A stretch of 64,000 bases of DNA, taken from assembly GCA_035456405.1 (NCBI GenBank), contig DATIDG010000034.1:22151-86150 (forward strand), written 5' to 3'. Numbering within the stretch: the first letter of the stretch is position 1; every line of letters starts with the position of its first letter. The translations under genes were made by a program, and so were the position numbers. The notes under the pieces were generated by a model. It saw nothing but the letters and a program-made list of their open reading frames with translations. It was not told the DNA's origin and did not search any database. Positions 37,025 through 56,471 of the stretch are shown piece after piece. This DNA comes from Burkholderiales bacterium (lineage in GTDB: Bacteria; Pseudomonadota; Gammaproteobacteria; Burkholderiales; SG8-39).

Positions 37025-39628
<2,604 letters not shown>

Positions 39629-39922
39629 CTGCACGCGGCGCCCAGCCGCTTGACATCACCCGGGCGATCCCATATACACGCGGCTTGAGCGTGGGTGGGT
39701 AGAAGCGGTCAGCCGGGCCGTCGACGGCGCAATGCCGGGGCGGTCCGGTCGGAGATTGCTAACAGGCGTAGGCTTGCGCCGTGCGCGATCCTGACCGGGA
39801 GCTTCCCATGTCGCGATCTCTCCTGCTGCCGAGACAAGAACGAGCAGGACCGCCGGTGCCGGCGGGCAGCCTGCCGCTGCAACTCCATTTGCTCTGCAAA
39901 CCTTTCTTCGAGGAGGGTAGCC

Positions 39923-40894
39923 ATGTTCGACCGCTTCATCAGGGTTCTTGCATTCGTCCTGGCCGCGCTGCCGTTCGCAGCTCAGGCTCAGGACAAAGTG
40001 ACCTTCCTGACCAGCTGGTACGCACAGGCCGAGCACGGCGGGTTCTACCAGGCGCTCGCCAAGGGCCTTTACAAGCAGCACGGCCTCGACGTCACGGTCA
40101 GGATGGGCGGCCCGCAGGTGAACGGCATGCAGTTGATGATGGCGGGCCAGGCCGACATGCACATGGGCTATGACTTCCAGGTCCTCAAGTCGATCGAGCA
40201 GGGCCTGACGCCGGTGACCGTTGCGACGTCGTTCCAGCACGACCTGCAGGGCCTCATGACGCACGACGACGTCAAGAGTCTCGGCGACCTCAAGGGCAAG
40301 ACCATCCTCGTCGCGACGGCCGGCCGGAGCTCGTGGTGGCCGTGGATGAGGCAGAAGTACGGCTACGCCGAGGAGCAGACGCGCCCGTACACGTTCAACC
40401 TTCAGCCGTTCTTCGCCGACAGGAACATCGCGCAGCAGGCGTACATGTCCTCCGAGCCTTTCCAGGCAGAGAGGAACGGCACCAAGGCGAAGTTCTTCCT
40501 GTTCGCGCGCGACGGCTTCCCGCCGTACGGCACGACCATCGTCGCGACGCAGAAGATCGTGAAGGAGCGGCCGGACGTGGTGCAGCGCTTCGTGCGCGCT
40601 TCGATGGAGGGGTGGAAGAGCTACATCCAGGATCCGGCGGCCGCGAACGAGCTGATCAAGAAGGACAACCCGAACATGAAGGACGACCAGCTCGCGTACG
40701 CGCTCGCGAAGCTGAAGGAGCAGAACCTGATTACCGGCGGCGACGCGGCGAAGATGGGCATCGGCGTGATGACCGACGAGCGCTGGAAGAAGACGCATGA
40801 GTACATGGTCTCGGCCGGGCTGCTGGCGCCGAACGTCGACGTCCGGCAGGCGTATACGACGCAGTTCGTGAAGGACCTGAAGGTCATGCCGTGA
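39923..40894 (+). CDS. ABC transporter periplasmic substrate-binding protein, NMT1/THI5 (NitT/TauT) type
   Basis: RBS GAGGAGGG and a signal peptide ending AQA-QD. TSWYAQAEHGGFY motif. Confidence 0.85.
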   Translation: MFDRFIRVLAFVLAALPFAAQAQDKVTFLTSWYAQAEHGGFYQALAKGLYKQHGLDVTVRMGGPQVNGMQLMMAGQADMHMGYDFQVLKSIEQGLTPVTVATSFQHDLQGLMTHDDVKSLGDLKGKTILVATAGRSSWWPWMRQKYGYAEEQTRPYTFNLQPFFADRNIAQQAYMSSEPFQAERNGTKAKFFLFARDGFPPYGTTIVATQKIVKERPDVVQRFVRASMEGWKSYIQDPAAANELIKKDNPNMKDDQLAYALAKLKEQNLITGGDAAKMGIGVMTDERWKKTHEYMVSAGLLAPNVDVRQAYTTQFVKDLKVMP

Positions 40895-40991
40895 GGGGCG
40901 GGGCGGCCGGCGCGCGCGCCGCCCGCCCCGTCGCGAACGCCGCGCAGGAACCGCCGCGCCCCGGGTTCCAGCGCGGGGCCGGGAATCCTTC

Positions 40992-41813
40992 ATGTCAGCC
41001 ATCGCAATGCCTCCTAGGGTCGCGTCGGCCGCGGACCCGGTCGTCGACATCCGCGGCGCGGACAAGGTCTTTGCCAACGGCACCCGGGCGCTCAGCCCGG
41101 TCGATCTGACGATACGGGGCGGCGAGTTCATCACGCTGCTCGGACCGTCGGGCTGCGGGAAGTCGACGCTGCTCAAGATCATCGCGAACCTGCTGACGCC
41201 GTCGTCCGGACAGCTCAGCTGGTGGCGGAGCGGCTTCGACCACGTCGGCGAGCCCGGCAAGAAGCTGGTGATGGTGTTCCAGGACGCGACGCTCATGCCG
41301 TGGGCGCGCGTGCAGCGCAACGTCCGCCTGCCGCTCGACCTCGCGCGGATGTCCCGGGCCGAAGCCGACGCACGCGTCGCCGACGCCCTTTCGCTTGTCG
41401 GCCTGACCGGCTTCGAGGCGAACTATCCGCGGCAGCTGTCGGGCGGGATGCAGATGAGAGTCTCGATCGCGCGTGCGCTCGTGACGGAGCCGAACCTGCT
41501 GCTCATGGACGAGCCGTTCGGCGCGCTCGACGAGATCACCCGCAACAGGCTGGACGCCGACCTCATCCAGCTCTGGTGGAAGAAGAAGCTCACGGTCGTC
41601 TTCGTCACGCACAGCATCTACGAAGCGATCTTCCTCTCGACGCGCGTCGTGGTGATGGCGGCGCGGCCGGGGCGAGTGCTGAAGGACGTGGTGATCGACG
41701 AACCGCACCCGCGGACTGAGGCATTCCGGGTGACGCAGAAGTTCGCCGCGTACGCGAAGAGCCTGTCCGGGCTCCTCGCGGAAGCGAGCGCCAAGGGGAC
41801 GACCGACCTGTGA
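40992..41813 (+). CDS. ABC transporter ATP-binding protein (NitT/TauT family)
   Basis: GPSGCGKST, LSGGMQMRVSIARAL, LLLMDEPFGALD. Confidence 0.9.
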   Translation: MSAIAMPPRVASAADPVVDIRGADKVFANGTRALSPVDLTIRGGEFITLLGPSGCGKSTLLKIIANLLTPSSGQLSWWRSGFDHVGEPGKKLVMVFQDATLMPWARVQRNVRLPLDLARMSRAEADARVADALSLVGLTGFEANYPRQLSGGMQMRVSIARALVTEPNLLLMDEPFGALDEITRNRLDADLIQLWWKKKLTVVFVTHSIYEAIFLSTRVVVMAARPGRVLKDVVIDEPHPRTEAFRVTQKFAAYAKSLSGLLAEASAKGTTDL

Positions 41814-42595
41814 GCGAACGCCTCATGAAGTGGTTCGCGCCGCTCGCCGTGGGCGTCCTCGTGCTGGTCCTCTGGCACGTGCTGGTGAAAGTCTTCGACG
41901 TACCGAAGTTCCTCGTCCCAGGACCGCTCGTGGTGCTGCAGACGCTGGTCGCGGACTGGAGCCTCCTCTTCAACTCGCTCCTGGTCACGCTCAAGATCAC
42001 CTTCGGCGCGTTCTTCCTTGCGGTGGTGATCGGCACGACGGTCGCGTTCCTGTTCGTCCAGAGCCGCTGGGTCGAGATGAGCCTCTTCCCCTACGCAGTG
42101 CTGCTCCAGGTGACCCCGATCGTGGCGATCGCGCCGCTCATCATCATCTGGGTCAAGGAGCCGACCCTGGCGCTCATCGTCTGCGCCACGATCGTCGCTC
42201 TGTTCCCGATCATCTCCAACACGATACTGGGCCTGCGCAGCGTGAACCCCGGCCTGGTCAACCTGTTCCGCATGAACAAGGCCACCCGCTGGCAGACGCT
42301 CACCCAGCTGCGCATTCCGTCGGCCGCGCCGTACTTCTTCGGCGGTCTGCGCATCTCGTCTGGCCTCGCCTTGATCGGCGCAGTCGTGGCCGAGTTCGTC
42401 GCCGGCACGGGCGGCACCGGTGCAGGGCTCGCCTACCAGATCCTGCAAGCGGGCTACCAGATCAACATCCCGCGTCTGTTCGCCGCGCTGCTCATGATCA
42501 CGGTGACCGGCGTGGCCCTGTTCCTGCTGATGGTGTTCCTGTCCAAGCTTGCGCTCGCGAGCTGGCACGAATCGGAAGTGGTCCACGAAACCTAG
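41810..42595 (+). CDS. ABC transporter permease (NitT/TauT family)
   Basis: Six-TM protein with an EAA-like loop (RSVNPGLVNLFRMNKATRWQ). Overlaps the ATPase gene stop. Confidence 0.9.
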   Translation: MSERLMKWFAPLAVGVLVLVLWHVLVKVFDVPKFLVPGPLVVLQTLVADWSLLFNSLLVTLKITFGAFFLAVVIGTTVAFLFVQSRWVEMSLFPYAVLLQVTPIVAIAPLIIIWVKEPTLALIVCATIVALFPIISNTILGLRSVNPGLVNLFRMNKATRWQTLTQLRIPSAAPYFFGGLRISSGLALIGAVVAEFVAGTGGTGAGLAYQILQAGYQINIPRLFAALLMITVTGVALFLLMVFLSKLALASWHESEVVHET

Positions 42596-43957
42596 ATGCT
42601 CCTCCGGAACGCCACCGCGATCATGACCGGCCTCCCCGGGGACGAAGCCCGCGCGGCGGGGCGCGACCTGCGCATCGACCCGAACGGCCGCATCGAGGCG
42701 ATCGGCATGCTCGCGCCGGGGGCGGGCGAGCAGGTGGTCGATGCGACCGATTGCGTCGTGTACCCGGGCTGGGTCAACACGCATCACCACCTCGCACAGT
42801 CGGTCCTCAAGGGCGTGCCGGCGGGCATCAACCTGCCGCTGCTCGGCTGGCTCGATGCCGTGCCGTACCGCTATCGCCACCGCTTCGACGCGGAGCTGCT
42901 CGCGATCGCGGCGGAGGTCGGGCTCACCGAGCTCATGCTGTCGGGTTGCACGACGACGGCGGATCACCATTACGTCTACTGGCCCGGTATGGCCTACGAC
43001 CCGGCGCAGCTGTACTTCGACCTCACGGCGCGGCTGGGAATCCGGTTCGTTCTGTGTCGCGGCGGCGCGACCGTGAAGCGGGCGTTCGAGTCGGACGACC
43101 CGAACGCGCTCCAGCCCGAGACGCTCGACGCGATCGTCGGCGACGTCGAGCGGCTCGTCGGCGCCTACCACGATCCCGGTCCCGAGGCGATGCGCCGCAT
43201 CGTGCTCGCGCCGGCGACCCCGACCTGGTCGCTGCGCCCGGAAGAGCTGAAGCCCGCGGTGCGCGCGGCGCGCAGGCTTGGGATCCGCACGCACAGCCAC
43301 CTGTCGGAGACCGCCGACTACGTCGCATTCTGCCGCGAGCAGCACGCCCGGAGGCCAGTCGAGTTCATGGCCGAGCACGAATGGCTCGGAGCCGACGTCT
43401 GGTTCGCGCACATGGTGCATCTCTCCGAGTCCGAGGTCCGGCTCGTCGCTGAGACCGGCACCGGGATCGCGCACTGCCCCGCCTCGAACTGCCGGCTCGG
43501 AAGCGGCGTCGCCCCGGTGCCGGAGCTTGCCCGCGCCGGCGCACCCGTGTCGATCGGCGTGGACGGCGCCGCGTCGAACGAATCCGCCGACTTCATTTCC
43601 GAAGCGCACATCTGCTGGTACACCCATCGCGCGGTGAAGGGCGCCGCCGCGGTGACCGTCGAGGACGTGATCCACTGGGGCACGCGCGGCGGTGCACGCG
43701 TGCTCGGCATCGACAACATCGGCACGCTCGAGGTCGGCCGCGCCGCGGACCTCGCCGTGTACTCGCTCGACCAGCCGCGTTATGCGGGTCTGCACGACCC
43801 GGCGATTGGTCCGGTCGCGAGCAGCGGCAGGCCGCGTCTGCGACTGCTCACCGTGCAGGGGCGCGTGGTGGTCGAGAACGACGCGATTCCCGGTCAGGAC
43901 CTGCCGCGGTTGCTCGCCCGCGCGCGCGAGGCCGTGCGGAAGCTCTCGGATGGCTGA
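42596..43957 (+). CDS. Metal-dependent amidohydrolase, 8-oxoguanine deaminase / chlorohydrolase-like
   Basis: PGWVNTHHHLAQS (HxH), THSHLSET, and VSIGVDGAASNES (Asp). Starts immediately after the permease stop. Confidence 0.85.
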   Translation: MLLRNATAIMTGLPGDEARAAGRDLRIDPNGRIEAIGMLAPGAGEQVVDATDCVVYPGWVNTHHHLAQSVLKGVPAGINLPLLGWLDAVPYRYRHRFDAELLAIAAEVGLTELMLSGCTTTADHHYVYWPGMAYDPAQLYFDLTARLGIRFVLCRGGATVKRAFESDDPNALQPETLDAIVGDVERLVGAYHDPGPEAMRRIVLAPATPTWSLRPEELKPAVRAARRLGIRTHSHLSETADYVAFCREQHARRPVEFMAEHEWLGADVWFAHMVHLSESEVRLVAETGTGIAHCPASNCRLGSGVAPVPELARAGAPVSIGVDGAASNESADFISEAHICWYTHRAVKGAAAVTVEDVIHWGTRGGARVLGIDNIGTLEVGRAADLAVYSLDQPRYAGLHDPAIGPVASSGRPRLRLLTVQGRVVVENDAIPGQDLPRLLARAREAVRKLSDG

Positions 43958-44056: not shown

Positions 44057-44920
44057 ATGCGACGCTTCGAGTACCACGAGCCTGCCACGCTCGACGAGGC
44101 CGTCGCGCTGCTGGGGCGCTTCGGGGACGAGGCGAGCCTACTCGCGGGCGGCACGGATCTGCTGGTCGAGATCAGGGAACACGTACACTGGCCGCGGCAG
44201 GTCGTCAACATCAAGAAGATCCAGGGCATCGCCGCGCTCGGCTACGACGAGCGGGCCGGCCTGCGCTTCGGCGCGCTTGTCACCGCGCGCGAGATCGAGA
44301 CCTCGCCCGTGGTGCTCGAGAAGTACCCCGGGCTTGCGCAGGCGGCGCGCGAGCTCGGCTCGATCCAGGTCCGCAATCGCGCGACGATCGTCGGCAACGT
44401 CTGCCGCGCGTCACCCTCTGCGGACACGCTGCCGCCGCTGATCGCCGACGGCGCGACGGTGAAGGTCTACGGACCTGCCGGCGAGCGCACGGTCGCGCTC
44501 GAGGCGTTCTTCACCGGTCCCGGCACGACCCTGCTCGGACCCGGTGAGCTGGTGACGGAGATCGCTGTGCCGCCCCCGCCGCCGCGCACCGGCAAGCACT
44601 ACATCAAGCACGGCCGCCGCAAGGCAATGGAGCTCGCGACCGTCGGGGTCGGTGTGACGCTCACGCTCGACGGCGGGGCGTGCCGCGAGATCCGGATCGC
44701 GCTCGGCGCGGTCGCGCCCACGCCGATCCGGGCGCGGAATGCCGAGGACGCGCTGCGTGGGCGCGCGCTCGACGGCGCGGGGATCGAGGCGGCGGCGCGG
44801 ATCGCAATGGACGAGTGCCGGCCGATCAGCAACGTGCGGGGGAGCGCGGAGTACCGGCGCGATATGGTCGGCGTGCTCACGCAGCGCGCGATCCGGCAGG
44901 CGATGGAGGCGGTGCGATGA
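44057..44920 (+). CDS. Molybdenum hydroxylase (xanthine dehydrogenase family) FAD-binding medium subunit
   Basis: CoxM/XdhB-like: LLAGGTDLLVEIRE, GNVCRASPSADT, RGSAEYRRDM. Confidence 0.9.
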   Translation: MRRFEYHEPATLDEAVALLGRFGDEASLLAGGTDLLVEIREHVHWPRQVVNIKKIQGIAALGYDERAGLRFGALVTAREIETSPVVLEKYPGLAQAARELGSIQVRNRATIVGNVCRASPSADTLPPLIADGATVKVYGPAGERTVALEAFFTGPGTTLLGPGELVTEIAVPPPPPRTGKHYIKHGRRKAMELATVGVGVTLTLDGGACREIRIALGAVAPTPIRARNAEDALRGRALDGAGIEAAARIAMDECRPISNVRGSAEYRRDMVGVLTQRAIRQAMEAVR

Positions 44921-45405
44921 AGCGGGTCGTCGAGGTCACGATCAACGGCGAGCGCCACGAGCTCGCGCTCGAGCCTTACCGCAGTCTGCTCGACGTGCTG
45001 CGCAACGAGGTCGGCCTGACCGGGACGAAGAAGGGCTGCGACGTCGGCGATTGTGGCGCGTGCACCGTGCTGCTCGACGGGAAGCCGGTCAACTCCTGCC
45101 TGGTGCTGGGCGTCGAGGTCGCCGGCTGCGACATCGTGACGATCGAGGGTCTGCAGCCCGACCCGGAGCGCCTGCACCCGCTGCAGGAGAGCTTCATGAA
45201 GCACGGCGGTGCGCAGTGCGGCTTCTGCACGCCGGGCTTCGTCATGATGGCCAAGGCGCTTCTCGATGAGAACCCCAACCCGACCGAGGAGGAGATCCGC
45301 TTCGGCATCGCGGGCAACATCTGCCGCTGCACCGGCTACACGAGGATCGTGACGGCGATCCAGGAGGCCGCAAAAGAGCTGAGCGAGGGAAGGAGCCCCG
45401 CGTGA
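44917..45405 (+). CDS. Molybdenum hydroxylase [2Fe-2S] small subunit
   Basis: ATGA overlap. Cluster motifs CDVGDCGACTV and QCGFCTPG...CRCTGY. Confidence 0.9.
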   Translation: MKRVVEVTINGERHELALEPYRSLLDVLRNEVGLTGTKKGCDVGDCGACTVLLDGKPVNSCLVLGVEVAGCDIVTIEGLQPDPERLHPLQESFMKHGGAQCGFCTPGFVMMAKALLDENPNPTEEEIRFGIAGNICRCTGYTRIVTAIQEAAKELSEGRSPA

Positions 45406-47675
45406 ACGTCGTCGGCACGAGCGTCAAGCGCACCGACATCATCGGGAAGGTCACCGGCACCGCACAGTACGCGGGCGACGTGAAGCTCGCGGGGATGCTG
45501 CACGGGAAGATCAAGCGCAGCACGGTCGCGCACGCCAACATCAAGCGCATCGACATCAGCCGAGCGGTCGCATTCCCGGGCGTGAAGGCCGTGCTTACGC
45601 ACGAGAACGTCCCGCGCGTGCTGCACTACGGCTCGCCGCATCCGCGCTCGGCGTCGGTGACGTGCGACCAGTACATCCTCGACCGGAAAGTGCGCTACTG
45701 GGGCGAAGGGGTGGCCGCCGTCGCGGCGGTGAGCGAGGAGATCGCCGAGGAGGTGCTCGACCTCATCGACGTCGAATACGAGCCGCTGCCCGGCGTGTTC
45801 ACGGTCGAGGCGGCGCAGGCGTCCGGCGCCCCGGTGATCCACGAAACGGGGTATGCCAACAACCTGCTGTTCAAGCCCGTCGTGGTGACGCGCGGCGACG
45901 TCGCGAAGGGCTTCGCGCAGGCCGACCTGATCATCGAGGGCGAGTACGAGACCGGACGTCCGACGCCCGCGTACATGGAGCCCAACGTCTGCGTCTGCCA
46001 ATGGGACAACACCGGTAAGCTCACGGTGTGGGTATCGACCCAGACCGCGTTCATGGTGCGCGGGATCCTCGCCGAGGTGCTCGGCCTGCCGCTCCACAAG
46101 GTGCGGGTCCTCGTGGATCACATGGGCGGCGGCTTCGGGGCCAAGCAGGATCTCTTTCAGCACGAGTTCCTGTGCGCGCTGCTCGCCAAGGAGACGCGCC
46201 ATCCGGTGCGGATGGAGTACACGCGCGGCGAGACCTTCGTCGGCGGGCGTTCGCGCCACCCGTGCAAGATCTGGCTCAGGCAGGGCTTCAGGAAGGACGG
46301 CACGGTCGTCGCGCGCGAGGCGCGCATGACCTACAACAGCGGGGCGTACGGCTCGCACGGCCCCGGCGTCACGATCGTCGGGACGAGCGCGCTCACCTCG
46401 CTCTACCGCTGCGAGAACGTCCATCTCGAGGGACGGTGCGTGTATACCAACACGCCGATCGCCGGCGCCTACCGCGGCTACGGTGTGGTGCAGACCTACT
46501 ATGCGCTCGACATACAGATGGACGAGGCCGCCGCACGGCTCGGCATGGACCCCGTCGAGCTGAAGCTCAGGAACGCGGTGCGCGAGGGCGACCTCGCGCC
46601 GTCCGGGCACCCGATCGTCGGCCACGGCTTGGAGGACTGCATCCGGCGCGGCGCGCAGGAGGCCGGCTGGGAGCAGCTCCGTCGTCGACCGCACGAGCCG
46701 GACGGCACGTTCCGCCGCGGCTGGGGCATGGGATGCGAGATGCACGGCTCCAGCGCCTACCCCGGCATCAAGGAGCAGGGCAACGCGATCGTCAAGATGA
46801 ACGAGGACGGCACGGCGGTCCTGCTGACCGGCGCGGCCGGGCTCGGCACGGGCGCACACACCGCGCTCGCGCAGATCGTCGCCGAGGAGCTGGGTTTGCG
46901 GTTCGACGACGTGGCGGTGGTGCACGGCGACACCGACATCGTGCCGTGGGACATCGGGGCGTTCGCGAGCCACACGACGTTCATGGTCGGGCGCGCGGCA
47001 CAGATGGCGGCGAGCGAGGTGAAGAGGCAGCTGCTCCAGCGCGTGGGCGAGCAGATCGAGGTGGCTCCCGAGGATCTCGAGGTCCGCGACAGCGTGATCG
47101 CGGTGCGCGGCGTCGCCGCAAAGCGCATGACCGTGCGCGAGGCGATGGGCCCGAAGCCCGGCATCCCGGCGGCGAACCTGGTGGGCAACGGCACGTACAC
47201 GCCGACCAAGTCCTACTCGTTCGCCGCGCACTTCGTCGAGGTGCAGGTGGACACCGGAACAGGCCAGATCGACGTGCTGCAGGTGGTGCCGGTGCACGAG
47301 GTCGGCAAGGTCGTGCATCCGGTCGCGGCCGCCGGGCAGATCGAGGGCGGCATCCAGCAGGGCATCGGTCACACCCTGACGGAGGACTACATCGTCGATC
47401 TCACGAACGGCCGCTCGCTGAACGCCGGATTCGTCGACTACAAGATGCCGCTGTCGATGGACATGCCGCCGATCAGGACTATCATCCTGGAGACTGCGCC
47501 CGACCCGGGCGGCCCATACGGCGCGAAGGGCATCGGCGAGGATCCGATCATCGCCATCGGTCCGGCAATCGCCAACGCGATATACGACGCGGTCGGCGTG
47601 CGTTTCCGCCACTTCCCGATTACGCCAGAGCAGGTCCTCGCCGCGCTGAAGGACAAGACGAATGCAGATGCCTGA
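45402..47675 (+). CDS. Molybdenum hydroxylase molybdopterin-binding large subunit
   Basis: 757 aa. GTGA overlap. [15 protein letters not shown] and [18 protein letters not shown] motifs of the aldehyde oxidase/xanthine dehydrogenase family. Confidence 0.9.
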
Positions 47676-48672
47676 CGCCGCGGCAGCGCCGCCGGTCCCC
47701 GTCACGATCCTTACCGGCTTCCTCGGCGCCGGGAAAACGACGCTGCTCAATTACATCCTCACCGAGCGCCACGGGCACCGCATCGCCGTCATCGAGAACG
47801 AGTTCGGCGAAGTGAACATCGATTCCGGTCTCGTCCTGACGTCCGAGGAGCGCATCTACGAGTTCACGAACGGCTGCATCTGCTGCGTCGGCGCGGTGCG
47901 CAGCGACCTCGTCAGGATCCTGAAACAGTTGATGAGCCGCCGCGAGAAGTTCGACCACATCCTGGTCGAGACCAGCGGGCTCGCCGACCCTCAGCCAGTT
48001 GCGGCGACCTTCTTCGTCGACGACGAGGTGGCGCGCCAGGTCGCGCTCGACGGGATCGTCACGCTGGTGGACGCGAAGCACATCGGCCGGCACCTCGACG
48101 ACCCCAGCCTGCACGGGCACGACAACCAGGCGGTCGACCAGATCGTCACCGCCGACCGCATCATCGTGAACAAGGTCGACCTGGTCGACGAGGCCGAGGC
48201 CGCGGCGGTCGAGGCACGAGTGCGCGGCCTCAACGCGACCGCGGAGATCCTCCGGTCGAGCTACGCGAAAGTGGCGCTCGACCGCATCCTCGGGCTGGGC
48301 GCGTTCGACCTGTCGCAGACGATGGCGATCGAGCCGGACTTTCTCGACCACCGCCATCATTCCCACCAGCACGACCCGGCGGTCGAGTCGATCGCCGCGG
48401 TCTACGACGCGCGCTTCGACCGCGTGCGGTTGGCCGGCTTCCTCGAGCGACTACTCGATCAGCGCGGCGACGACATCTTCCGCGTGAAAGGGATCGTCGC
48501 GCTCGCCGGCGACCATCGCCGCTGCGTCCTCCAGGCGGTGCACCGGATCATGGAACTGCGTCCCGCGAACCCCTGGGGTGCGGAGGCGCCATCGAGCAAG
48601 ATCGTGTTCATCGGCCGCAACCTCGACCGCGCGGCGATCGAGGCTGGCCTGAAGAACTGCCTTGCCGCCTGA
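47662..48672 (+). CDS. COG0523 (CobW/YjiA/ZigA-type) G3E metallochaperone GTPase
   Basis: [13 protein letters not shown]-loop, GCICC (CXCC), VNKVDL, and a His-rich stretch [12 protein letters not shown]. The ATG lies 14 nt inside the 3' end of the Mo-subunit gene. Confidence 0.9.
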
Positions 48673-48723: not shown

Positions 48724-49716
48724 TTACTCGGGCTTGATCCCGGCCGACTCGATCGTTTTCGCGAGCGTCGCGACGTCGTCGCGGACCATGGCGCCGAACT
48801 CCCGCGCCGGCATGGGCAGCGGGTCCGCGCCGACCGACGCGTAGCGCTCGCGGAGGTCCGGCGCGACGAGCGCCTTCGCGAGCGCGTCGTTGAGCCGCTG
48901 CACGATCGCGGGCGGCAGTCCAGCCGGGCCGTGCAGGCCGACCCACAGGCGCAGCGTCACCCCCGGGTAGCCGGACTCGGCGAACGTCGGCACGTCGGGC
49001 AGGAGCGGGGTACGCTGGTCCGACATCATCGCGACCGGCCGGACCTTGCCCGTGCGGATGTACTGGATCGCCGACGGCAGTGCATCGAAGATCATGGTGA
49101 CGCTGCCGGAAATCATGTCCGGATAGGCGAACGCCGCGCTCTTGTACGGGATGTGCACGAGGTCGACGCCGGCCGCAGCCCGCAGCAGCTCGGCCGAGAT
49201 GTGACCGATGCTGCCCACGCCCGAGGAGCCGTAGTTCAGCCTTCCCGGGTTCGCCTTGGCATGGGCGACCAGCTCTTTGACGGTCCGGGGCGCCATCGCC
49301 AGATTCACCGTGAGGATGGTCGGGGTGAGCGCGACGCCGCCGATCGCAGTGAAGTCGTTCACCGGGTCGTACGGGCTCGTCTGGACGAGCCTCGGGCCGA
49401 TCGCGTACGCGCTCAGGCTCGAGAGCACAACGGTATAGCCGTCGGGAGCCGCCTTGGCCACGATGCCGGTCCCGAGCATGCCGCCGGCGCCGCCACGGTT
49501 CTCCACGACCACGGGCTGCCCGAGCACTTCCGACAGCTTCTGTGCGAGCACCCGACCGATGATGTCGGACACCCCGCCGGCCCCATAGGGCACGATCATG
49601 CGAACCGTGCGCGACGGATAGCCGCCCGCCTGCTCGCCTGCGGCCTGCGCCGATGCGCACGCCGGCGCCAGCGCGAGCGACACTGCAACGCATGCTGCCC
49701 CAAACAGTCTCATCAT
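48724..49716 (-). CDS. Bug-family (TctC) tripartite tricarboxylate transporter substrate-binding protein
   Basis: Signal peptide MMRLFGAACVAVSLALAPACASA. PSRTVRMIVPYGAGGVSD, VVENRGGAGG, NYGSSGVGSIGH motifs. Confidence 0.9.
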   Translation of the reverse strand: MMRLFGAACVAVSLALAPACASAQAAGEQAGGYPSRTVRMIVPYGAGGVSDIIGRVLAQKLSEVLGQPVVVENRGGAGGMLGTGIVAKAAPDGYTVVLSSLSAYAIGPRLVQTSPYDPVNDFTAIGGVALTPTILTVNLAMAPRTVKELVAHAKANPGRLNYGSSGVGSIGHISAELLRAAAGVDLVHIPYKSAAFAYPDMISGSVTMIFDALPSAIQYIRTGKVRPVAMMSDQRTPLLPDVPTFAESGYPGVTLRLWVGLHGPAGLPPAIVQRLNDALAKALVAPDLRERYASVGADPLPMPAREFGAMVRDDVATLAKTIESAGIKPE

Positions 49717-49766
49717 TCGACCCTCCCTATGGATGTCGCATCGTCGGCGGGATTCCGCGTCGGTCC

Positions 49767-51149
49767 TTAGGGCGTCGGATCGGTTGCCGCACCGCTCGCG
49801 CTTTCGCCCGGCGGGACCGCCCCGAGATAGCGCTCGAGATCCACCGGCGGATACACGACCTTGACGTAGCGTTCGTGCCGCTCGCGCGACAGCGTCGCGT
49901 CGATGATCGCCTTCGCCACCACGCCGTGCGCGTCGGACGAGGGATCCAGCTCGTTGCCGTGCGCGCCCGGGATCGGGATGACGTCCTCGTGCCAGCGCAC
50001 GCGCGTGCCGAGCGCCCACATGACGTCGGCCGGATCGCGGATGTCGACGTCGCCGTCGACGACGATCACCGTCTTGAAGTTGACGTGCGCCGCCATGGCG
50101 GCGAGCGCGACGTTGCGCGCCTCGCCGGGCTCGGGCTTGTCCAGGCTGATGATCGCCGTGAATCCCGCCGCGTAAGGCGGCAGATGCACGGCCTTCAGCC
50201 GCGGCGTGATGTGACGCACGAACCGGGCGAGCAGCGGCTCGCGTGTGATCATGTTCCCGACGCTGACGTGCTCGTAGCCGCCGCCGTTCATCGTCTGGAA
50301 GATCGGGTTCCTGCGGTGGGTGATGCGCGTGATGCGCGCTACGTGCTTGGGGTCGGCGCCCGAGTAGTGACCGGTGAACTCGGCCATCGGGCCCTCCATC
50401 TGCCTCACGCCCGCGAGGACCTCCCCCTCCAGCACGATCTCGGCCGAGGCCGGCACCATCACGTCGCAGGTGAGTGCGCGCACGACCGGGATCGCCGCCC
50501 CGCGCAGCGCGCCGGCGATCTCGTACTCGTCGGCGTCGTAGCGAAACGCTGCCGCCATCATCACGACCGGGTCGGGGCCGATCGCGACGCAGAAGGGCAG
50601 GTTATTCCCTTGCGGCTCGATCTTGTCGAAGAATGCCTTGATGTGGCGCCAGGTGTTCATGCTGATTCCGGTGCGGTCGGCGCCGAAGATCTGCATGCGG
50701 TTGTAGGACAGGTTGTGTCGCCCGGACTGCGGGTCGCGTGCGATCACCACACCGGCGGTGATGAACGCCCCCGCATCGAGCGGGGAATGGGTCGGGATCG
50801 GCCAGCGCCCGAGGTCGGGCTTGTCGATCACCATTTGCTGACACGGCGCCTGGCCCTCGACGGCCTGCGCGGCGAGCGGCCTCTCGGTGGCCACCGCCAT
50901 GCGTGCGCCGACTTCGGCCACCTCGCAGCCGAGCGCGAGCGCGATCCGGCGCGGCGAGCTCAGCAACCCACCGACGACCGGCACGTCGAAGCCGTTCACC
51001 TGGTGGAAGTAGGCTGCCTTGCCGGCGCGCTCGCAGGCATTGAGCACCGCACCGAGCTCGCGCACCGGGTCGACGGTGCGGCGGATCTCGTGCAGCTCGC
51101 CCGCCTTGCGGACAACCTCGAGGTAGCTGCGCAGGTCGTGGATGCGCAT
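49767..51149 (-). CDS. UbiD-family (prFMN-dependent) decarboxylase/carboxylase, paralogue B
   Basis: 460 aa. MRIHDLRSYLE, HNLSYNRMQI, MEGPMAEFTGHY and DVDIRDPADVMWAL motifs. Confidence 0.9.
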   Translation of the reverse strand: MRIHDLRSYLEVVRKAGELHEIRRTVDPVRELGAVLNACERAGKAAYFHQVNGFDVPVVGGLLSSPRRIALALGCEVAEVGARMAVATERPLAAQAVEGQAPCQQMVIDKPDLGRWPIPTHSPLDAGAFITAGVVIARDPQSGRHNLSYNRMQIFGADRTGISMNTWRHIKAFFDKIEPQGNNLPFCVAIGPDPVVMMAAAFRYDADEYEIAGALRGAAIPVVRALTCDVMVPASAEIVLEGEVLAGVRQMEGPMAEFTGHYSGADPKHVARITRITHRRNPIFQTMNGGGYEHVSVGNMITREPLLARFVRHITPRLKAVHLPPYAAGFTAIISLDKPEPGEARNVALAAMAAHVNFKTVIVVDGDVDIRDPADVMWALGTRVRWHEDVIPIPGAHGNELDPSSDAHGVVAKAIIDATLSRERHERYVKVVYPPVDLERYLGAVPPGESASGAATDPTP

Positions 51150-51153
51150 GAGG

Positions 51154-52536
51154 CTAGGACTGTATGCGCGCCAAGATCTGTGCCGCGCGCGAGAGCGCCC
51201 GCTCGGAAATCTTCGCCCGGATGCCCTCGAATCCCGCCTTCCGCGTCGCATCGAGGCCCATCCGCGACGTCGTGCCGGTGCCCGAGGCGGAGGGGTCGAG
51301 CGCGCTGCCGGGCAGCCCGTCGACGATGAGGACGTCGCGATGCGGCTGGAAGTGCGTCGCGAGCGCCCACAGCACCTCCGAGTCGTTGGCGATGTCCACG
51401 TCGGGGTCGACCGCGATCACGGTCTTGAGGTAGGGGTCCCACCCGAGGAGCCCCATCATCACCTGGCGCGCCTCGCCGGGGCGAAGCTGCTTCAGCGCGA
51501 CGTACGCGTGGAAATGCGTGCCGGAGGTCGGATAGTGAACGGCGGTGACGCCCGGGAACCGCTCCTTCAGCTTCTCGACCATCTCGGATTCGCGCGGGAC
51601 GCGCGCCAGATTGAGGTGCTCGGCGGAATTGCCGCCCGCGACGTCGACCAGCCACGCATCGCGCCGCCGCAGGATCGCATCCACCTTGAGGAGGTTGTTC
51701 GTCGAACGGCTCGACGAGTAGCCGGTGAACTCACCGAACGGCCCCTCCTCGGCGTGAGCTTTCGCATCGATGGTGCCCTCGAGGACCAACTCGGCGGCGG
51801 CGGGCACCGCGATGCCGTGCGCGGGCGTGCGAACCACCTCCAGCGGCGCGCCGAGCAGTCCGCCGGCGATGCGCCGCTCGTCGACGCCGAAGCCGACCCG
51901 CGCCGAGGCGGCGAGCATGAACAGCGGATGCGCGCCGATCACCATCGCGACCGGCATCGGGCGACCGCGCTCGGCGTAGAGCTGCAGCAGGCGCCACAGG
52001 TGCCCGCGCGAATGCAGGCTCGTCGCGAACTCGCTCTTGGAGTGCAGCATCGCGCGGTGGTAACTGAGGTTGCCCGCGCCGGTGTCCGGGTGCTCCGCGA
52101 CGACGATGCCGCTCGTCAGGTACGGCGCGCGGTCGGTCTCGAAGTGCTTGAGCAGCGGGAGCGTCGCGAGATCGAGTGCGCGCGTCTCGACGGTGTCGAG
52201 CACCGGACCGGACTCGATCACCCGGAAATCGCAGGCCCCGCGCGTGCGTGCCTGGTAGGTTTCGTGCAGGCGCCCAGGCTCGGCGCCGAGGAGACGGGCG
52301 ATGCGAGTACGCGAGCCGAAGACGTTCGTCACGACCCTCGCGCCGAGACCCGTCACGCGCTCGAAGACGAGCACCGGCTGGCGTGCGGCGGCCGCGAGCC
52401 GCCAGAGCACCGCGGTGATGTCCTGGTCGGGCGAGACCTCGTCGCTCACGCCGAGGACGTCGTCCGGATGCGCGGCGCGATAGCCCTCGAGGAAGCTGCG
52501 GAAATCCTGCGCGCCGGGCGGAGACGGGTGCGTCAT
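51154..52536 (-). CDS. UbiD-family (prFMN-dependent) decarboxylase/carboxylase, paralogue A
   Basis: 460 aa. QDFRSFLEG, GNLSYHRAML, EEGPFGEFTGY and DVDIANDSEVLWAL motifs. Ends 4 nt before the start of paralogue B. Confidence 0.9.
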   Translation of the reverse strand: MTHPSPPGAQDFRSFLEGYRAAHPDDVLGVSDEVSPDQDITAVLWRLAAAARQPVLVFERVTGLGARVVTNVFGSRTRIARLLGAEPGRLHETYQARTRGACDFRVIESGPVLDTVETRALDLATLPLLKHFETDRAPYLTSGIVVAEHPDTGAGNLSYHRAMLHSKSEFATSLHSRGHLWRLLQLYAERGRPMPVAMVIGAHPLFMLAASARVGFGVDERRIAGGLLGAPLEVVRTPAHGIAVPAAAELVLEGTIDAKAHAEEGPFGEFTGYSSSRSTNNLLKVDAILRRRDAWLVDVAGGNSAEHLNLARVPRESEMVEKLKERFPGVTAVHYPTSGTHFHAYVALKQLRPGEARQVMMGLLGWDPYLKTVIAVDPDVDIANDSEVLWALATHFQPHRDVLIVDGLPGSALDPSASGTGTTSRMGLDATRKAGFEGIRAKISERALSRAAQILARIQS

Positions 52537-52562
52537 GTGGCGAATCGCCCGGCGCGAGGCGG

Positions 52563-53477
52563 TCACTTCACGCCGGCGTAGCTGTCCTTCAGTCGCGCCT
52601 GCGCTTCCTCCATCGTGCGCGGCGGCGGCGTGGTCCGGATGCCGCACAGGCGCGCGATGTTGTTGCCCAGGTAGTCCTCGAGCCCATCCTCGTCGAGGTT
52701 CATGCCCTGGGGCGGCGGGCCGCACAGCACCTCGAGCTCGCGCAGCCACATGCCGGGCTCGTTCGGCGGTGAGTCGGTGCCGAACACGATCTTGTGCCGC
52801 GGCAGCTCCTTGGCGAACTCGACGATGCGCGCCTGGAAGGTCCAGCCCGACTCGCAGACCACGTTCGGCGTGTCCATCGCCATCCAGAACGCCTCGAACG
52901 AGTAGTTGCCGCCGGTCTGGATGCCGAAGTGGCCGATGATGAAGTTGACCATCGGGAACTCGCGGATCACCGGGTAGAACTGGGTCGGGATGCTGAACGG
53001 GCCGTCGCCGGTGTGGATCAGGACGACCACGTTGTGCTTCGCGCACATCTTCATCGCCGGGCGCAGCCAGTCGAGCGCCCGATCGGGGCGGTAGTTGTGC
53101 ATGTTGGAGTGGAGCTTCAGCATCTTGAAGCCGTACTCCTTGACGTGAAACTCAAGCTCGGCGGCGCCTTCCTCCGGGCCCCAGCGCGGGTTGAAGCTGA
53201 AGTTGCCGATGAACCGGTCCGGGTACTTCCGGCAGAGCTCCGCGCAGTAGGCCATGTAGTCGCGGATCCCCGGGCGGCCGGTGCGATTGCCCTCGCGGTA
53301 CACCGTGTTGCCCGGGGGCGGCTGGATGAAGCCCATGTCGATGCGCCGCTGCTTGCCGTTGATCATGTACGGGCCGTCCATCAGCTTGAGCATGCGCTCG
53401 CCGTTGAAAGGCGTACCGGTGTGCCGCCACGCCTCGTCGACGACGTTGGTCGGATGCAGATGGGTGTCGATGATCAT
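52563..53477 (-). CDS. Amidohydrolase_2 family protein (ACMSD/LigW/gamma-resorcylate-decarboxylase-like), metal ligands intact
   Basis: 304 aa. MIIDTHLHPT (HxH), IIGHFGIQTGG (His), VFGTDSPP (Asp). Confidence 0.85.
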   Translation of the reverse strand: MIIDTHLHPTNVVDEAWRHTGTPFNGERMLKLMDGPYMINGKQRRIDMGFIQPPPGNTVYREGNRTGRPGIRDYMAYCAELCRKYPDRFIGNFSFNPRWGPEEGAAELEFHVKEYGFKMLKLHSNMHNYRPDRALDWLRPAMKMCAKHNVVVLIHTGDGPFSIPTQFYPVIREFPMVNFIIGHFGIQTGGNYSFEAFWMAMDTPNVVCESGWTFQARIVEFAKELPRHKIVFGTDSPPNEPGMWLRELEVLCGPPPQGMNLDEDGLEDYLGNNIARLCGIRTTPPPRTMEEAQARLKDSYAGVK

Positions 53478-53495
53478 CGCGCTCTCCGAGCTTGA

Positions 53496-54416
53496 CTAGG
53501 CGGCCACGGGCTTCTTAGACGCGAGGCGCGCTTGCGCTTCCTCGGCCGTGCGCGGGGGCGCGGTGGGCGCAACGCCGATCATGCGCGCCAGGTTGTTGCC
53601 GAGATAGTCCTCGAGGGTGTCCTCGTCGAGGTTCAGGCCGTGCGGCGGCTCCATGCAGAGCACCTCGAGGAGGCGGATCCACATCCCCGGCTCGTTCGGC
53701 GGCGTGTCGGAGCCGAACATGATCTTGTGCTTCGGCAGGTCCTTGGCGAACTCGACGATCCGGGACTGCAGGCACCACCCGGACTCGCAGTAGACGTTGG
53801 GAAGCTCCATCGCCCACTGGAACGGCTCGAAGCAGTACACGCCGCCGGTCTGCACGCCGAAGTGCGCCATCACGAAGTTCACCGTCGGGAACTCCTTGAT
53901 GATCGGCACCCACTCGGTCGGGATGCTGTAAGGGCCGTCACCGGTGTGGAGCTTGACGAGCAACCCGAGGTCCGCGCACTTCCTCAGTGCGGGACGGATC
54001 CAGTCCTTGGCGCGGTCCGGGCGGTAGGCGTGCATGTTGGCCTGGAGCTGCACCATCTTGAAACCGAACTGCTTCGCGTGGCGCTCGAGCTCCGCGACGC
54101 CGTTGTCGATGCCGTAGCGCGGGTTGTAGACGAAGCAGCCGAGGAGACGCTCGGGATAGCGCTGCGCCAGCTCGACGGTATAGGCCATGTAGTGCTGGAT
54201 GGCTTCCCGTCCGGTCCGGTTGCCGTCGGTCCAGTTGTAGATCGTGTTGCCCTGCGGCGGCTGGATAAGCGCCATGTCGACGCGGCGCGGCTTGCCGTTC
54301 ACCGTGTAGGGCCCGTCCATCATCCGGATCAGATGCTCGCCGGTGAAGGGCTCGCCGTCGTGCCGCCAAGCCGTGTCGACCACCTTCGTCGGGTAACAGC
54401 TCATGTCGATGATCAT
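53496..54416 (-). CDS. Amidohydrolase_2 family paralogue lacking the N-terminal HxH motif
   Basis: 306 aa, collinear with 52563-53477 (PPNEPGMW, HFGVQTGG, FGSDTPP, LDEDTLEDYLGNN). The N-terminus reads MIIDMSCYPT instead of IIDTHLHP. Confidence 0.85.
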   Translation of the reverse strand: MIIDMSCYPTKVVDTAWRHDGEPFTGEHLIRMMDGPYTVNGKPRRVDMALIQPPQGNTIYNWTDGNRTGREAIQHYMAYTVELAQRYPERLLGCFVYNPRYGIDNGVAELERHAKQFGFKMVQLQANMHAYRPDRAKDWIRPALRKCADLGLLVKLHTGDGPYSIPTEWVPIIKEFPTVNFVMAHFGVQTGGVYCFEPFQWAMELPNVYCESGWCLQSRIVEFAKDLPKHKIMFGSDTPPNEPGMWIRLLEVLCMEPPHGLNLDEDTLEDYLGNNLARMIGVAPTAPPRTAEEAQARLASKKPVAA

Positions 54417-54749
54417 GCAGGCGCTCCTTCGGTGATCGTTTGGCGACGCGAAGGCGGTTCGAGCCGGAGTTCCCGGGCGGGGTCCTGTGCGTCTCGTGCG
54501 CCCTGATCGGGGAGCGGCGCGGGCAGGCTCGCGGTCGGGAATGCGCCGGCGGAAATCACCTCGCCTGTGAGCAATCTCCCACCGGGCGGATGCGGCGTTG
54601 CACCGCACGCGGCCCGGCCGACCGCTTCTACCCACGTCCCGGGCTTTTTAGGTGATCGACCGGGATCTGTCAAGGGGACAGCCGGGTCGCGCGCTCGGTA
54701 AGATCGGGCTCGGAGTCGCACGAGACTACACGCACGGAGCGCGCCGAAC

Positions 54750-55859
54750 ATGAAAGTCAGAGCCGCAGTCGCCTATGCCCCCGGCCAGCCGCTCGCGATC
54801 GAAACCGTGGACCTCGAGGGCCCGAAAACCGGCGAAGTGCTGGTCGAGATCCGCGCGACCGGCGTGTGCCACACCGACGAGTTCACGCGCTCGGGCGCCG
54901 ATCCCGAGGGGCTGTTCCCGGCGATCTTCGGTCACGAGGGGGCCGGCGTGGTGGTCGACGTGGGGCCGGGGGTCACGTCGCTCGGGAAGGGCGATCACGT
55001 CATCCCGCTCTACACGCCCGAGTGCCGGCAGTGCAAGAGCTGCCTGTCGCGAAAGACGAATCTCTGCACCGCGATTCGCGGTACGCAGGGCAAGGGCGTG
55101 ATGCCCGACGGCACCAGCCGATTTTCGATCGGCGGGAAGATGATCCACCACTACATGGGCTGCTCGACGTTCGCGAACTACACCGTGCTGCCCGAGATCG
55201 CGCTGGCAAAGATCCGCGCGGACGCCCCCTTCGACAAGGTCTGCTACATCGGCTGCGGCGTGACCACCGGCATCGGTGCGGTCATCAACACCGCGAAGGT
55301 CGAGGCCGGCGCGAACGTCGTCGTGTTCGGGCTGGGCGGCATCGGGCTGAACGTCGTGCAGGGCGCGCGGCTGGTCGGCGCGAACATGATCGTCGGCGTG
55401 GACCTCAACGCGGCGCGCGAGCCGCTCGCGCGCAAATTCGGACTGACCCACTTCGTGAATCCGCAGGACGTCCAGGGCGACCTCGTCGCGCACCTGGTGG
55501 AGCTCACCGGCGGCGGGGCGGACTACAGTTTCGAATGCGTAGGGAACGTCGATCTGATGCGCCAGGCGCTGGAGTGCTGCCACCGCGGGTGGGGCGTGTC
55601 GGTGATCATTGGCGTCGCCGGCGCCGGCCAGGAGATCAGGACGCGCCCGTTCCAGCTCGTGACCGGGCGGGTGTGGAAAGGGACCGCGTTCGGCGGCGCG
55701 AGAGGGCGGACCGATGTCCCGAAGATCGTCGACTGGTACATGGACGGCAGGATCAACATCGACGATCTGATCACGCACACCATGCCCCTCGAGCGCATCA
55801 ACGAGGCCTTCGACCTGATGCACGAAGGCAGGTCGATCCGGAGCGTCGTCGTCTATTGA
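54750..55859 (+). CDS. adhC: S-(hydroxymethyl)glutathione dehydrogenase / class III alcohol dehydrogenase
   Basis: 369 aa. [35 protein letters not shown] and GLGGIGL motifs. Confidence 0.95.
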
Positions 55860-56467
55860 ACCTGCGGCGCCGCCTGCGCGGTGATCGACCGCGCGCGGCG
55901 CGAGAGCTCTTCCCAGAGCGTGGAGGTGTCCTTGCGGAAGACGGTGTCGGGGTCCGCGTCGAACACCCACCAGTCCCCGCGCTGCAGCTCGTTTGCGAGC
56001 TGCCCGGGCGCCCAGCCCGAGTAGCCGTTGAAGAACCGCACCTGCTCGGGCGGATTGAGCAGCAGCTGCTCGACCGTGGGCGGAAGGAGCGCGAGATGCA
56101 GGTCACCGACCACCGGGAACGTCTGGCCCGGCACCTCCTGCGCGCGGAACACCGCGAACAGCCCCACGGGTTCGACCGGCCCGCCGAAGTAGAGCGGCTC
56201 GGTGAACTTCGCGAGCGTCGGATTGCCGGGTAGGATGTTCGCCAGCGACTGCTTCATCGGGCGGTTGATGATCACGCCGAGCGTCGCACCGTCCGGCGCG
56301 TTGGCGACAAGGACGACGGTGCGCTGGAAGTTCGGGTCGAGGATCGTAGGCTTGGCGACCAGGAAGAAGCCGCGCTCGGCCTGCTGCGCGACCGCAGCGT
56401 GGACGGCGAGCGCGAGAAAGACTGCGACCAGCAGCCGCAGCGCGGCGCGGGCCCCGATCGCCTTCAC
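55853..56467 (-). CDS. YqgE/AlgH (UPF0301, DUF179) family protein with a predicted signal peptide
   Basis: [29 protein letters not shown], then [27 protein letters not shown] and [14 protein letters not shown]. Confidence 0.8.
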
Positions 56468-56471
56468 TGCT

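Follow-up and report, generated by a model that had tools for sequence, protein, structure and literature searches.

The lumazine and 7-hydroxypterin degradation genes of Cupriavidus sp. LA-1, termed 'cluster I', were reported by Doi, Maeda and Takaya in August 2025 (PMC12391406). In that study, lumazine dehydrogenase (LuDH, LA1_0145-0147), 6,7-dihydroxylumazine isomerase (DHLI, LA1_0151/0152), xanthine-8-carboxylate decarboxylase (XCDC, LA1_0150), UbiX (LA1_0144), a helper GTPase (LA1_0143) and a deaminase (LA1_0140), all from one gene cluster, were purified and reconstituted. The deaminase converts pterins to lumazines, and LuDH, a three-subunit Mo enzyme, oxidizes lumazine in an NAD+-dependent manner, first at C7 and then at C6, via 7-hydroxylumazine to 6,7-dihydroxylumazine. 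DHLI, an alpha2/beta2 enzyme composed of two amidohydrolase_2 paralogues with a mutual similarity of about 65%, rearranges this product to xanthine-8-carboxylate, which is decarboxylated to xanthine by XCDC, a UbiD enzyme with a cluster-borne UbiX. XCDC is active alone as a homohexamer and inactive on furoate and furandicarboxylate. The GTP-binding protein LA1_0143 raises the solubility and activity of DHLI and always accompanies the DHLI pair (PMC12391406). Here, a 64-kb stretch of contig DATIDG010000034.1 from a Burkholderiales bacterium (hereafter the window, meaning the whole stretch analysed) is compared with this system. A five-gene minus-strand operon in the window, at 48724-54416, very probably provides, as judged by sequence, the two middle steps of the route by which bacteria convert lumazine and pterins to xanthine, and would thus be a variant of the known system that carries an accessory pair of genes for a second UbiD protein (UbiD2) and a TctC-type binding protein.

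The five open reading frames (ORFs) follow one another on the minus strand as products of 306, 304, 460, 460 and 330 aa, separated by 18, 26, 4 and 50 nt, in a window with a G+C content of about 69%. This layout, including the two UbiD proteins of 460 aa each, is as given in an earlier description made from the sequence alone (the original prediction), and a Pfam search confirmed its family calls of two Amidohydro_2, two UbiD and one TctC protein, with E-values across the domains of the five proteins between 1e-15 and 1e-70. All coordinates are positions in the 64-kb window, and L-numbers denote related loci compared with it. The genes, in order of transcription, are as follows.

53496..54416, minus strand: predicted DHLI alpha, non-catalytic amidohydrolase_2 paralogue, 306 aa (PF04909, E 3.5e-34)
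52563..53477, minus strand: predicted DHLI beta, catalytic Zn-dependent amidohydrolase_2, 304 aa (PF04909, E 1.5e-43)
51154..52536, minus strand: UbiD1, predicted XCDC orthologue, dependent on prenylated flavin mononucleotide (prFMN), 460 aa (UbiD_N, UbiD and UbiD_C; core E 6.6e-57)
49767..51149, minus strand: UbiD2, HmfF-like predicted UbiD decarboxylase, 460 aa (UbiD_N, UbiD and UbiD_C; core E 1.9e-61)
48724..49716, minus strand: TctC/Bug-type predicted periplasmic carboxylate-binding protein, 330 aa (PF03401, E 3.6e-70)

The two amidohydrolases begin with MIIDMSCYPT (alpha) and MIIDTHLHPT (beta), share 63% identity and are collinear save for a two-residue insertion in the His-less alpha. 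In the beta product (52563-53477), His6, His8 and Asp235 occupy the exact positions given for LA1_0151, where they are the putative Zn ligands (PMC12391406), whereas Ser6-Cys7-Tyr8 replaces His6-x-His8 in the alpha product (53496-54416). The downstream motifs are retained in both paralogues (AHFGVQTGG and GHFGIQTGG; FGSDTPP and FGTDSPP), and the motifs, the collinearity and the loss of His in alpha all read as originally described. A homologue search with the His-less alpha returned 275 matches, the best 120 of which (65-100% identity) are spread over Beta-, Alpha- and Gammaproteobacteria. At the N-terminus, 105 of these best 120 have IID-x-[SA]-C-[YHF]-P in place of IID-x-H-x-H-P, so the loss of HxH is old and conserved rather than a recent decay. 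Cys7 itself is near-invariant (103 of the 105 alpha-type homologues), the beta subunits having Leu, Phe or Met there. In the closest relatives among metagenome-assembled genomes (MAGs), L005 and L021, alpha reads S-A-C-H, with the second His kept.

In LA-1, the DHLI alpha subunit (LA1_0152) lacks the two Zn-binding His residues and is non-catalytic, yet it is required, and re-introduction of the His residues inactivates the enzyme (PMC12391406). Because a heteromer was shown experimentally for this orthologous pair, the two window amidohydrolases most likely form a heteromer as well, with one catalytic and one degenerate subunit, as the original prediction had proposed. The decarboxylase chemistry of the LigW/IDCase type that it attached to the pair does not agree with the characterised orthologue, which is an isomerase dependent on a non-catalytic paralogue and on a helper GTPase. 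The window pair resembles the amidohydrolase_2 decarboxylases (LigW, gamma-resorcylate decarboxylase, IDCase and ACMSD) in the PF04909 domain and in the HxH...H...D metal ligands of beta, and the best solved-structure match of beta is LigW, although a remote one (E 1.4e-5 over 110 residues).

A search of other genomes found the DHLI alpha/beta-UbiD neighbourhood to be recurrent. It occurs in Burkholderia sp. PAMC 26561, Paracoccus methylovorus, S. meliloti pSymB and C. gilardii, and the core order in these canonical clusters is His-less amidohydrolase, HxH amidohydrolase, UbiD and UbiX; most of them continue with a CobW-type GTPase and a nucleobase permease, and some have a deaminase and an XOR-family Mo hydroxylase close by. 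The window alpha is 77-79% identical to the first amidohydrolase of the four clusters, and beta is 84-86% identical to the second. Against the C. gilardii cluster in particular, the identities are 79% for alpha, 86% for beta, 70% for UbiD1, 60% for the GTPase and 54% for the deaminase, the last two encoded in the convergent operon described below, and the S. meliloti, Burkholderia and Paracoccus clusters give comparable figures.

UbiD1 shares 62-70% identity with the UbiD gene product that follows the DHLI genes in the four canonical clusters and falls into the same clade in a phylogenetic tree. Its site residues are kept, i.e., NLSYHR, the Mn-binding His, the Glu of DERRIAG, and EEGPFGE. UbiD1 is accordingly labelled here as the predicted orthologue of XCDC. 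The original prediction had noted that no ubiX, CoA ligase or regulator lies in the operon. For ubiX, a CoA ligase and a protein regulator this is correct within the five genes, but an RNA regulator, a putative xanthine riboswitch, is present in the leader. With respect to ubiX, tblastn with three UbiX proteins found none in the entire 64-kb window, and none was found by tblastn within 10 kb of UbiD2 in 21 related loci. The cofactor prFMN would be supplied by a housekeeping ubiX elsewhere in the genome.

A plus-strand operon converges on the five genes, the end of its last gene lying 51 nt from the last gene of the minus-strand operon. Its genes are as follows.

39924..42595, plus strand: NitT/TauT-type ABC importer (Pfam), comprising an NMT1/THI5-like binding protein (39924-40894), an ATPase (40992-41813) and a permease (41810-42595)
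42596..43957, plus strand: predicted pterin/isoxanthopterin-type deaminase (Amidohydro_1, Pfam; best structure match 2PAJ, E 2.4e-161)
44057..47675, plus strand: predicted LuDH-type Mo hydroxylase of three subunits (Pfam), namely FAD (44057-44920), 2Fe-2S (44917-45405) and MoCo (45402-47675)
47662..48672, plus strand: COG0523 (CobW-type) GTPase, putative Zn-insertion or folding helper of DHLI (cobW and CobW_C), last gene

The start of the binding-protein gene was placed at the ATG at 39924, which is preceded by GAGGAGG. The deaminase is 54-55% identical to the deaminase that ends the C. gilardii and Burkholderia clusters, and its best structure match, 2PAJ, is one that we take to be the isoxanthopterin/pterin-6-carboxylate deaminase of Hall et al. 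(2010). The FAD, 2Fe-2S and MoCo subunits of the Mo hydroxylase share 63%, 66% and 74% identity, respectively, with the three subunits encoded alongside the S. meliloti pSymB cluster, and 68-75% with their counterparts in L012 and L013. The GTPase has a CICC motif at residue 72 and is 51-60% identical to the GTPases of the canonical clusters. From the orthology of the DHLI and UbiD1 genes together with this plus-strand gene content, the whole of 39.65-54.67 kb is read as a single predicted pteridine-to-xanthine locus made up of two convergent operons. In the closest syntenic relatives (L005, L007 and L021), the GTPase is 85% identical to that of the window and adjoins a Mo hydroxylase of another XOR type, the large subunit of which is only 28-30% identical to the window's, suggesting that the hydroxylase module has been swapped between close relatives. 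In L023, the stretch 7430-11427 looks degraded, with partial, low-identity matches to alpha, beta and UbiD2 and with XCDC missing; its deaminase and ABC genes share 89-94% identity with those of the window.

By analogy with LA-1, the activities encoded at the window locus would proceed as follows. The convergent operon would supply the ABC importer, the pterin deaminase and the Mo lumazine dehydrogenase that yields 6,7-dihydroxylumazine. Alpha and beta would assemble as 6,7-dihydroxylumazine isomerase, the Zn site of beta (His6, His8, Asp235) would attack the pyrazine ring at C7, and the ring would re-close as the imidazole of xanthine-8-carboxylate. UbiD1, with prFMN produced through a ubiX elsewhere in the genome, would then remove the carboxyl group to give xanthine. 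The COG0523 GTPase may aid the loading or folding of DHLI, and a build-up of xanthine or urate is predicted to shut off both operons via promoter-proximal OFF riboswitches. UbiD2 and TctC would act as an accessory uptake-plus-decarboxylation module, most likely for another N-heterocyclic carboxylate that feeds the pathway.

The riboswitch class in question (NMT1 RNA, RF03054) was reported to bind xanthine, urate and 8-azaxanthine and to turn expression off (Yu and Breaker 2020, PMC7373994). At that time, its associations with genes for NMT1/TauA transporters, guanine-deaminase-like proteins and 'hutI-like' metallo-amidohydrolases were unexplained (PMC7373994), and isoxanthopterin-deaminase-like genes had been noted with this RNA class by Weinberg et al. 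(PMC5737381). Doi et al. make no mention of a riboswitch (PMC12391406). Two copies, each behind a promoter-like element, are found at the window locus.

54645..54673, minus strand: sigma-70-like putative promoter 5' of the leader aptamer, TTGACA (54673-54668), 17-nt spacer, TAAAAA (54650-54645)
54564..54638, minus strand: xanthine riboswitch aptamer (NMT1 RNA, RF03054) in the 5' leader of the five-gene operon (Rfam)
39650..39678, plus strand: promoter-like element of the convergent operon, TTGACA (39650-39655), 17 nt, TATACA (39673-39678)
about 39692-39766, plus strand: second candidate xanthine-riboswitch aptamer, heading the convergent operon (RF03054, 26.7 bits, E 0.008 over 4.8 kb)

The leader aptamer covers the full model (1-56) and, at 36.3 bits, lies just over the gathering score of 36; its E-value is 2.5e-4 in a search of the window and 2e-6 when only the leader is searched. 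It is the sole match at gathering level in an Rfam scan of the window. The conserved junction nucleotides GUAGAAGCGGUC and GGGAGAUUGCUC are present in it. The second aptamer has the conserved core GGUAGAAGCGGUCAGCC...GGUCGGAGAUUGCU, with one P1 pair broken, and stays under the gathering score; 3' of it, an ATG at 39809 follows GGGAG in a frame that differs from that of the binding-protein gene. In the related loci, RF03054 matches are found in front of the DHLI alpha gene in L012 (50.9 bits), S. meliloti pSymB L004 (43.4 bits), L005 (35.2 bits) and L021 (33.7 bits), and a motif search added L011, L013, L014, L016, L019, L023 and L026 (C. gilardii), so that 11 of the 13 related loci holding that leader carry an aptamer before the alpha gene. 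The aptamer is absent from this leader in Burkholderia L002 and Paracoccus L003, where a LysR gene diverges from the alpha gene. An alignment of ten copies shows invariant junction nucleotides and compensatory changes in 7 of 17 pairs. Because the class is an OFF switch for xanthine and urate and heads both operons, the end product of the pathway is predicted to repress both of them.

The window aptamer resembles the described class in its core, its P1/P2 architecture, its 5'-leader position, its association with NMT1/TauA and amidohydrolase genes, and its restriction to Proteobacteria. It differs in that it precedes pteridine-to-xanthine genes, the function of which was unknown when the class was described, and in that it does not abut the ribosome-binding site (RBS). 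The distance from aptamer to start codon is about 130-150 nt in the window, L005, L021, L004 and L026, whereas the short-leader loci L012, L013, L014 and L016 have a Shine-Dalgarno sequence and AUG closely 3' of the aptamer. The Shine-Dalgarno sequence of the window alpha gene is GAAGGAG (54430-54424). In a minimum-free-energy fold, a degenerate platform copy, CCCGACCGCGAGCC, pairs with the aptamer 5' strand in the window; the leader folded in full shows no significant structure overall (z = -1.3), nor any clear element for sequestering the Shine-Dalgarno sequence. A leader ORF overlapping the alpha start codon (AUGA) was considered as a coupling device and rejected, as it is absent from the closest leaders, L005 and L021. 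The promoter element, the function of which is proposed from its sequence, is kept in L005 and L021 and reads TTGACA-N17-TATAAA in C. gilardii L026. A consensus promoter and terminator scan of the operon returned nothing, the promoter being missed since its -10 hexamer lacks the final T. Extra aptamers lie before genes for a 2OG-Fe(II) dioxygenase and an NMT1-type binding protein in L012 (4644-4722, minus strand) and also in L011, L013, L014 and L016. Next to these units lies a second Mo hydroxylase of the XOR family, with only 27-30% identity to that of the window, pointing to several riboswitch-controlled units around UbiD2 in these five loci.

UbiD2 is more distant from the LA-1 system than the other parts of the operon. 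Its identity is 31% with UbiD1 and 37-41% with three HmfF proteins, i.e., those of P. thermopropionicum (6H6V) and G. kaustophilus and a Paraburkholderia protein from an hmfFG-hmfABCDE locus (L027), and it forms a clade of its own in the tree. Its best solved-structure match is 6H6V (E 6e-86). In NCBIfam, UbiD1 and UbiD2 both fall only in the generic UbiD subfamily, and both are far under the curated cutoffs of the VdcC, UbiD proper, menaquinone decarboxylase and phenylphosphate carboxylase models. The N-x-S-x-x-R segment (NLSYHR in UbiD1, NLSYNR in UbiD2), the Mn His/Glu ligands and the E-G-P-x-x-E segment (EEGPFGEFTGY in UbiD1, MEGPMAEFTGHY in UbiD2) are intact in both proteins. Both also retain the His (HmfF His296) that picks heteroaromatic substrates in HmfF and HudA (PMC7976604). 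UbiD2 additionally retains HmfF Arg304. At the position of HmfF Arg331, which is said to bind the distal carboxylate in the HmfF study of Payne et al. in 2019, UbiD2 has Gly and XCDC has His, the region reading Gly-Phe-Thr in UbiD2 versus His-Phe-His in UbiD1. UbiD2 therefore resembles HmfF, its closest relative in sequence and structure, in the E(D)-R-E network, the Mn ligands, His296 and Arg304; it differs in its separate clade, in the Gly for Arg331, in the company of pteridine/purine genes, and in the absence of hmfG (ubiX) and hmfABCDE nearby, compared with the Paraburkholderia hmf locus L027.

Orthologues of UbiD2 (77-92% identity) were found at 21 loci, all in Burkholderiales MAGs, in a scan of one genome per GTDB species, and the nearest full-length relatives beyond this group, in a library of 1.84 billion representatives clustered at 50% identity, reach at most 49% identity; the UbiD2 clade thus appears to be narrow. 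Of about 17 loci whose flanks are long enough to be informative, 11 have UbiD2 linked to DHLI/XCDC genes, and at least four different arrangements occur. UbiD2 directly follows XCDC in the window, L005, L006, L007 and L021, filling in the window the slot of ubiX in other clusters; it follows the ABC importer upstream of the DHLI genes in L011-L014, stands beside the second Mo hydroxylase in L019, and lies about 7 kb from the pathway genes in L016. In the related loci it nearly always adjoins TctC or an ABC importer. Downstream of UbiD2, at no more than about 1 kb, a TctC orthologue (67-92% identity) is encoded in L005, L008, L010, L015, L022, L024 and L025; in L017 (about 5.7 kb) and L018 (about 3.8 kb) it lies upstream on the opposite strand. 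On this distribution, UbiD2 with its uptake component is best described as a portable, putative decarboxylation module. The nearest solved structures of TctC have ligands of the glutamate, aspartate, terephthalate and adipate type. No TctA or TctB was found among the 35 window ORFs scanned with Pfam, a scan that did not exhaust the window, and the window TctC looks like an orphan Bug-type gene; such orphans are common in Burkholderiales.

Likeness to LA-1 cluster I is seen in the His-less alpha and the His6/His8/Asp235 beta, in the UbiD gene directly downstream of the pair, and in the three-subunit XOR-family Mo hydroxylase, the COG0523 GTPase and the Amidohydro_1 deaminase. The window cluster differs in lacking ubiX, in its extra HmfF-like UbiD2 and TctC, in having an NMT1-type ABC importer where LA-1 has two purine/pyrimidine permeases, and in having xanthine riboswitches at the head of both operons and no adjacent protein regulators. 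Several points weigh against reading the locus as a riboswitch-controlled variant of the LA-1 pathway. The case for orthology to LA-1 runs via C. gilardii and further clusters, of which the paper gives only a general description. The canonical clusters carry ubiX, and the 64-kb window has none. The leader aptamer barely reaches its gathering threshold, which the second copy misses; moreover, 147 nt separate the end of the aptamer from the alpha start codon, with no RBS-sequestering platform identified. The LA-1 cluster is induced via lumazine and 7-hydroxylumazine, probably through protein regulators, which is a different logic (PMC12391406). Finally, UbiD2 may be unrelated to pteridines, since stand-alone UbiD2-TctC pairs without a riboswitch exist.

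This last point leads to the alternative that survives best, although it is still rather unlikely, namely that UbiD2-TctC is an independent mobile module for an unrelated furan-, pyrrole- or benzoate-type acid that landed by chance in an operon whose remaining genes are as proposed above. Four UbiD2-TctC loci (L008, L010, L015 and L022) show no pteridine-pathway gene in the available flanks and no riboswitch motif in a motif search. The annotated neighbours in L010 and L015 are acyl-CoA dehydrogenases, a gluconolactonase, a GST, a LysR regulator and a Rieske oxygenase. In addition, the closest characterised relatives of UbiD2 are furandicarboxylate decarboxylases, with which it shares His296 and Arg304. 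However, linkage to DHLI/XCDC genes in 11 of about 17 loci and in at least four arrangements exceeds what is expected of a passenger, and many loci have UbiD2 co-oriented right after a NitT/TauT importer, the kind of transporter under xanthine-riboswitch control. The change of Arg331 to Gly and the lack of hmf genes nearby also argue against this alternative, as do relatives at 45-49% identity that occur in N-heterocycle catabolic contexts. The two UbiDs concerned, in L029 and L030 (49% and 45% identity to UbiD2, respectively), are each followed by a luciferase-like monooxygenase, in a neighbourhood of creatininase, Amidohydro_1, URO-D-like, XOR-family, OTCase, M20 peptidase and nucleoside-type ABC transport genes. 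These appear to be uncharacterised N-heterocycle catabolic clusters, and their chemistry may be common to UbiD2.

Less probable again is that UbiD2 acts as a second XCDC, on xanthine-8-carboxylate imported by TctC, or as a helper of XCDC that makes up for the absent cluster UbiX. The position of the gene, 4 nt after XCDC in the window, directly after it in four other loci and in the place of ubiX, would suit this explanation, and the xanthine-8-carboxylate anion would suit a TctC-type binding protein. However, prFMN is made by UbiX and never by UbiD in the established division of labour, UbiD2 occurs without XCDC nearby, and 31% identity to UbiD1 together with the Gly-Phe-Thr versus His-Phe-His lining makes a different substrate more likely. 

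The substrate of UbiD2 is thus most probably an N-heterocyclic carboxylate related to the pathway, for which lumazine- or pterin-6-carboxylate is the leading guess, based on the genomic context and on a published proposal that bacteria degrading folate pass through lumazine-6-carboxylate, for which no enzyme of the next step is known (PMC9513972). A more far-reaching version of this idea, held as a speculative and rather improbable one, is that UbiD2 founds a new and narrow clade of decarboxylases that use prFMN and act on carboxylated pteridines (lumazine- or pterin-6-carboxylate, captured by TctC) derived from folate and biopterin breakdown, and that the NMT1/'hutI-like' riboswitch regulon as a whole is one of pteridine catabolism. 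If true, UbiD2 would strip off the carboxyl group so that the ring enters the lumazine-to-xanthine route, filling a missing step in folate/pterin mineralisation, and the xanthine-riboswitch class would provide product feedback on a route that makes purines from pteridines.

The weakest alternative is that of the original prediction, i.e., a heteromeric amidohydrolase_2 decarboxylase working with a PpcA/PpcB-like UbiD heteromer on a (hetero)aromatic di- or tricarboxylate imported by a TTT system, in an uncharacterised pathway, and it can be set aside as very improbable: the tight packing of two amidohydrolase_2 and two UbiD genes with a TctC gene, the tandem UbiD arrangement as in PpcA/PpcB, the 4-nt UbiD1-UbiD2 gap compatible with translational coupling and the faint LigW match of the HxH copy speak for it, but the orthologous amidohydrolase pair is an isomerase, XCDC works alone as a homohexamer, no gamma or delta subunit is present, UbiD1 and UbiD2 score 106-165 bits with the phenylphosphate carboxylase alpha and beta models (TIGR02723 and TIGR02724) against cutoffs of 469-565 bits, and the Mo hydroxylase, the pterin deaminase and the xanthine riboswitch all indicate pteridine/purine chemistry. 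A UbiD1/UbiD2 heteromer, in particular, is unlikely because the two proteins are 31% identical, belong to different clades and show variable linkage, lying in separate operons, or one without the other, in other genomes. The main substrate would be a pteridine-derived purine carboxylate instead of an aromatic polycarboxylate, and uptake of a carboxylated heteroaromatic acid through TctC would, if it occurs, concern the UbiD2/TctC pair only. The statement that the gene combination matches no characterised pathway no longer stands, as the cluster corresponds to the LA-1 cluster I pathway published in August 2025, an outcome that the original prediction had itself named as refuting it.

The core of the operon is therefore already explained by the 2025 pathway, and no unknown aromatic-acid route needs to be invoked. 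Three aspects go beyond the published description. First, candidate xanthine riboswitches lie on both operons and before DHLI alpha in most related clusters, including that of S. meliloti pSymB; this link would give a biochemical meaning to gene associations of the class that were unexplained from 2017 to 2020, and it predicts product feedback on pteridine breakdown. Second, a soil Burkholderiales lineage appears to run the pathway without a cluster-borne UbiX. Third, the same lineage has recruited a distinct HmfF-like UbiD together with a carboxylate-binding protein, which could provide the missing decarboxylation of folate-derived carboxylated pteridines. This lineage-specific variant is also marked by uptake of the ABC type and not of the permease type, and by putative riboswitch control in place of protein regulators.

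Beyond the locus, a Zn-dependent alcohol dehydrogenase gene (54750-55859, plus strand) diverges from the five-gene operon and is followed by two tandem AlgH/DUF179 genes (55853-57092, minus strand). These genes occupy an equivalent position in L005, L021 and L023 and are outside the canonical cluster. Upstream of the pteridine locus lie genes for a LysR regulator (34669-35589), a Ser/Thr protein kinase fused to a cyclic-nucleotide-binding domain (35593-36888, minus strand) and ClpB (36953-39628). Farther away in the window, multihaem c-type cytochromes adjoin an MtrB/PioB-type outer-membrane porin (E 1e-124) at 6413-7786 (minus strand) and 17000-21903 (plus strand), a porin-cytochrome module of the type serving extracellular electron transfer or iron oxidation. 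This module is flanked by genes for V/A-type ATPase subunits and by a Ccm cytochrome c maturation cluster (CcmF, CcmH/CycH), at 8409-15293 (minus strand) and 24964-30592 (plus strand).

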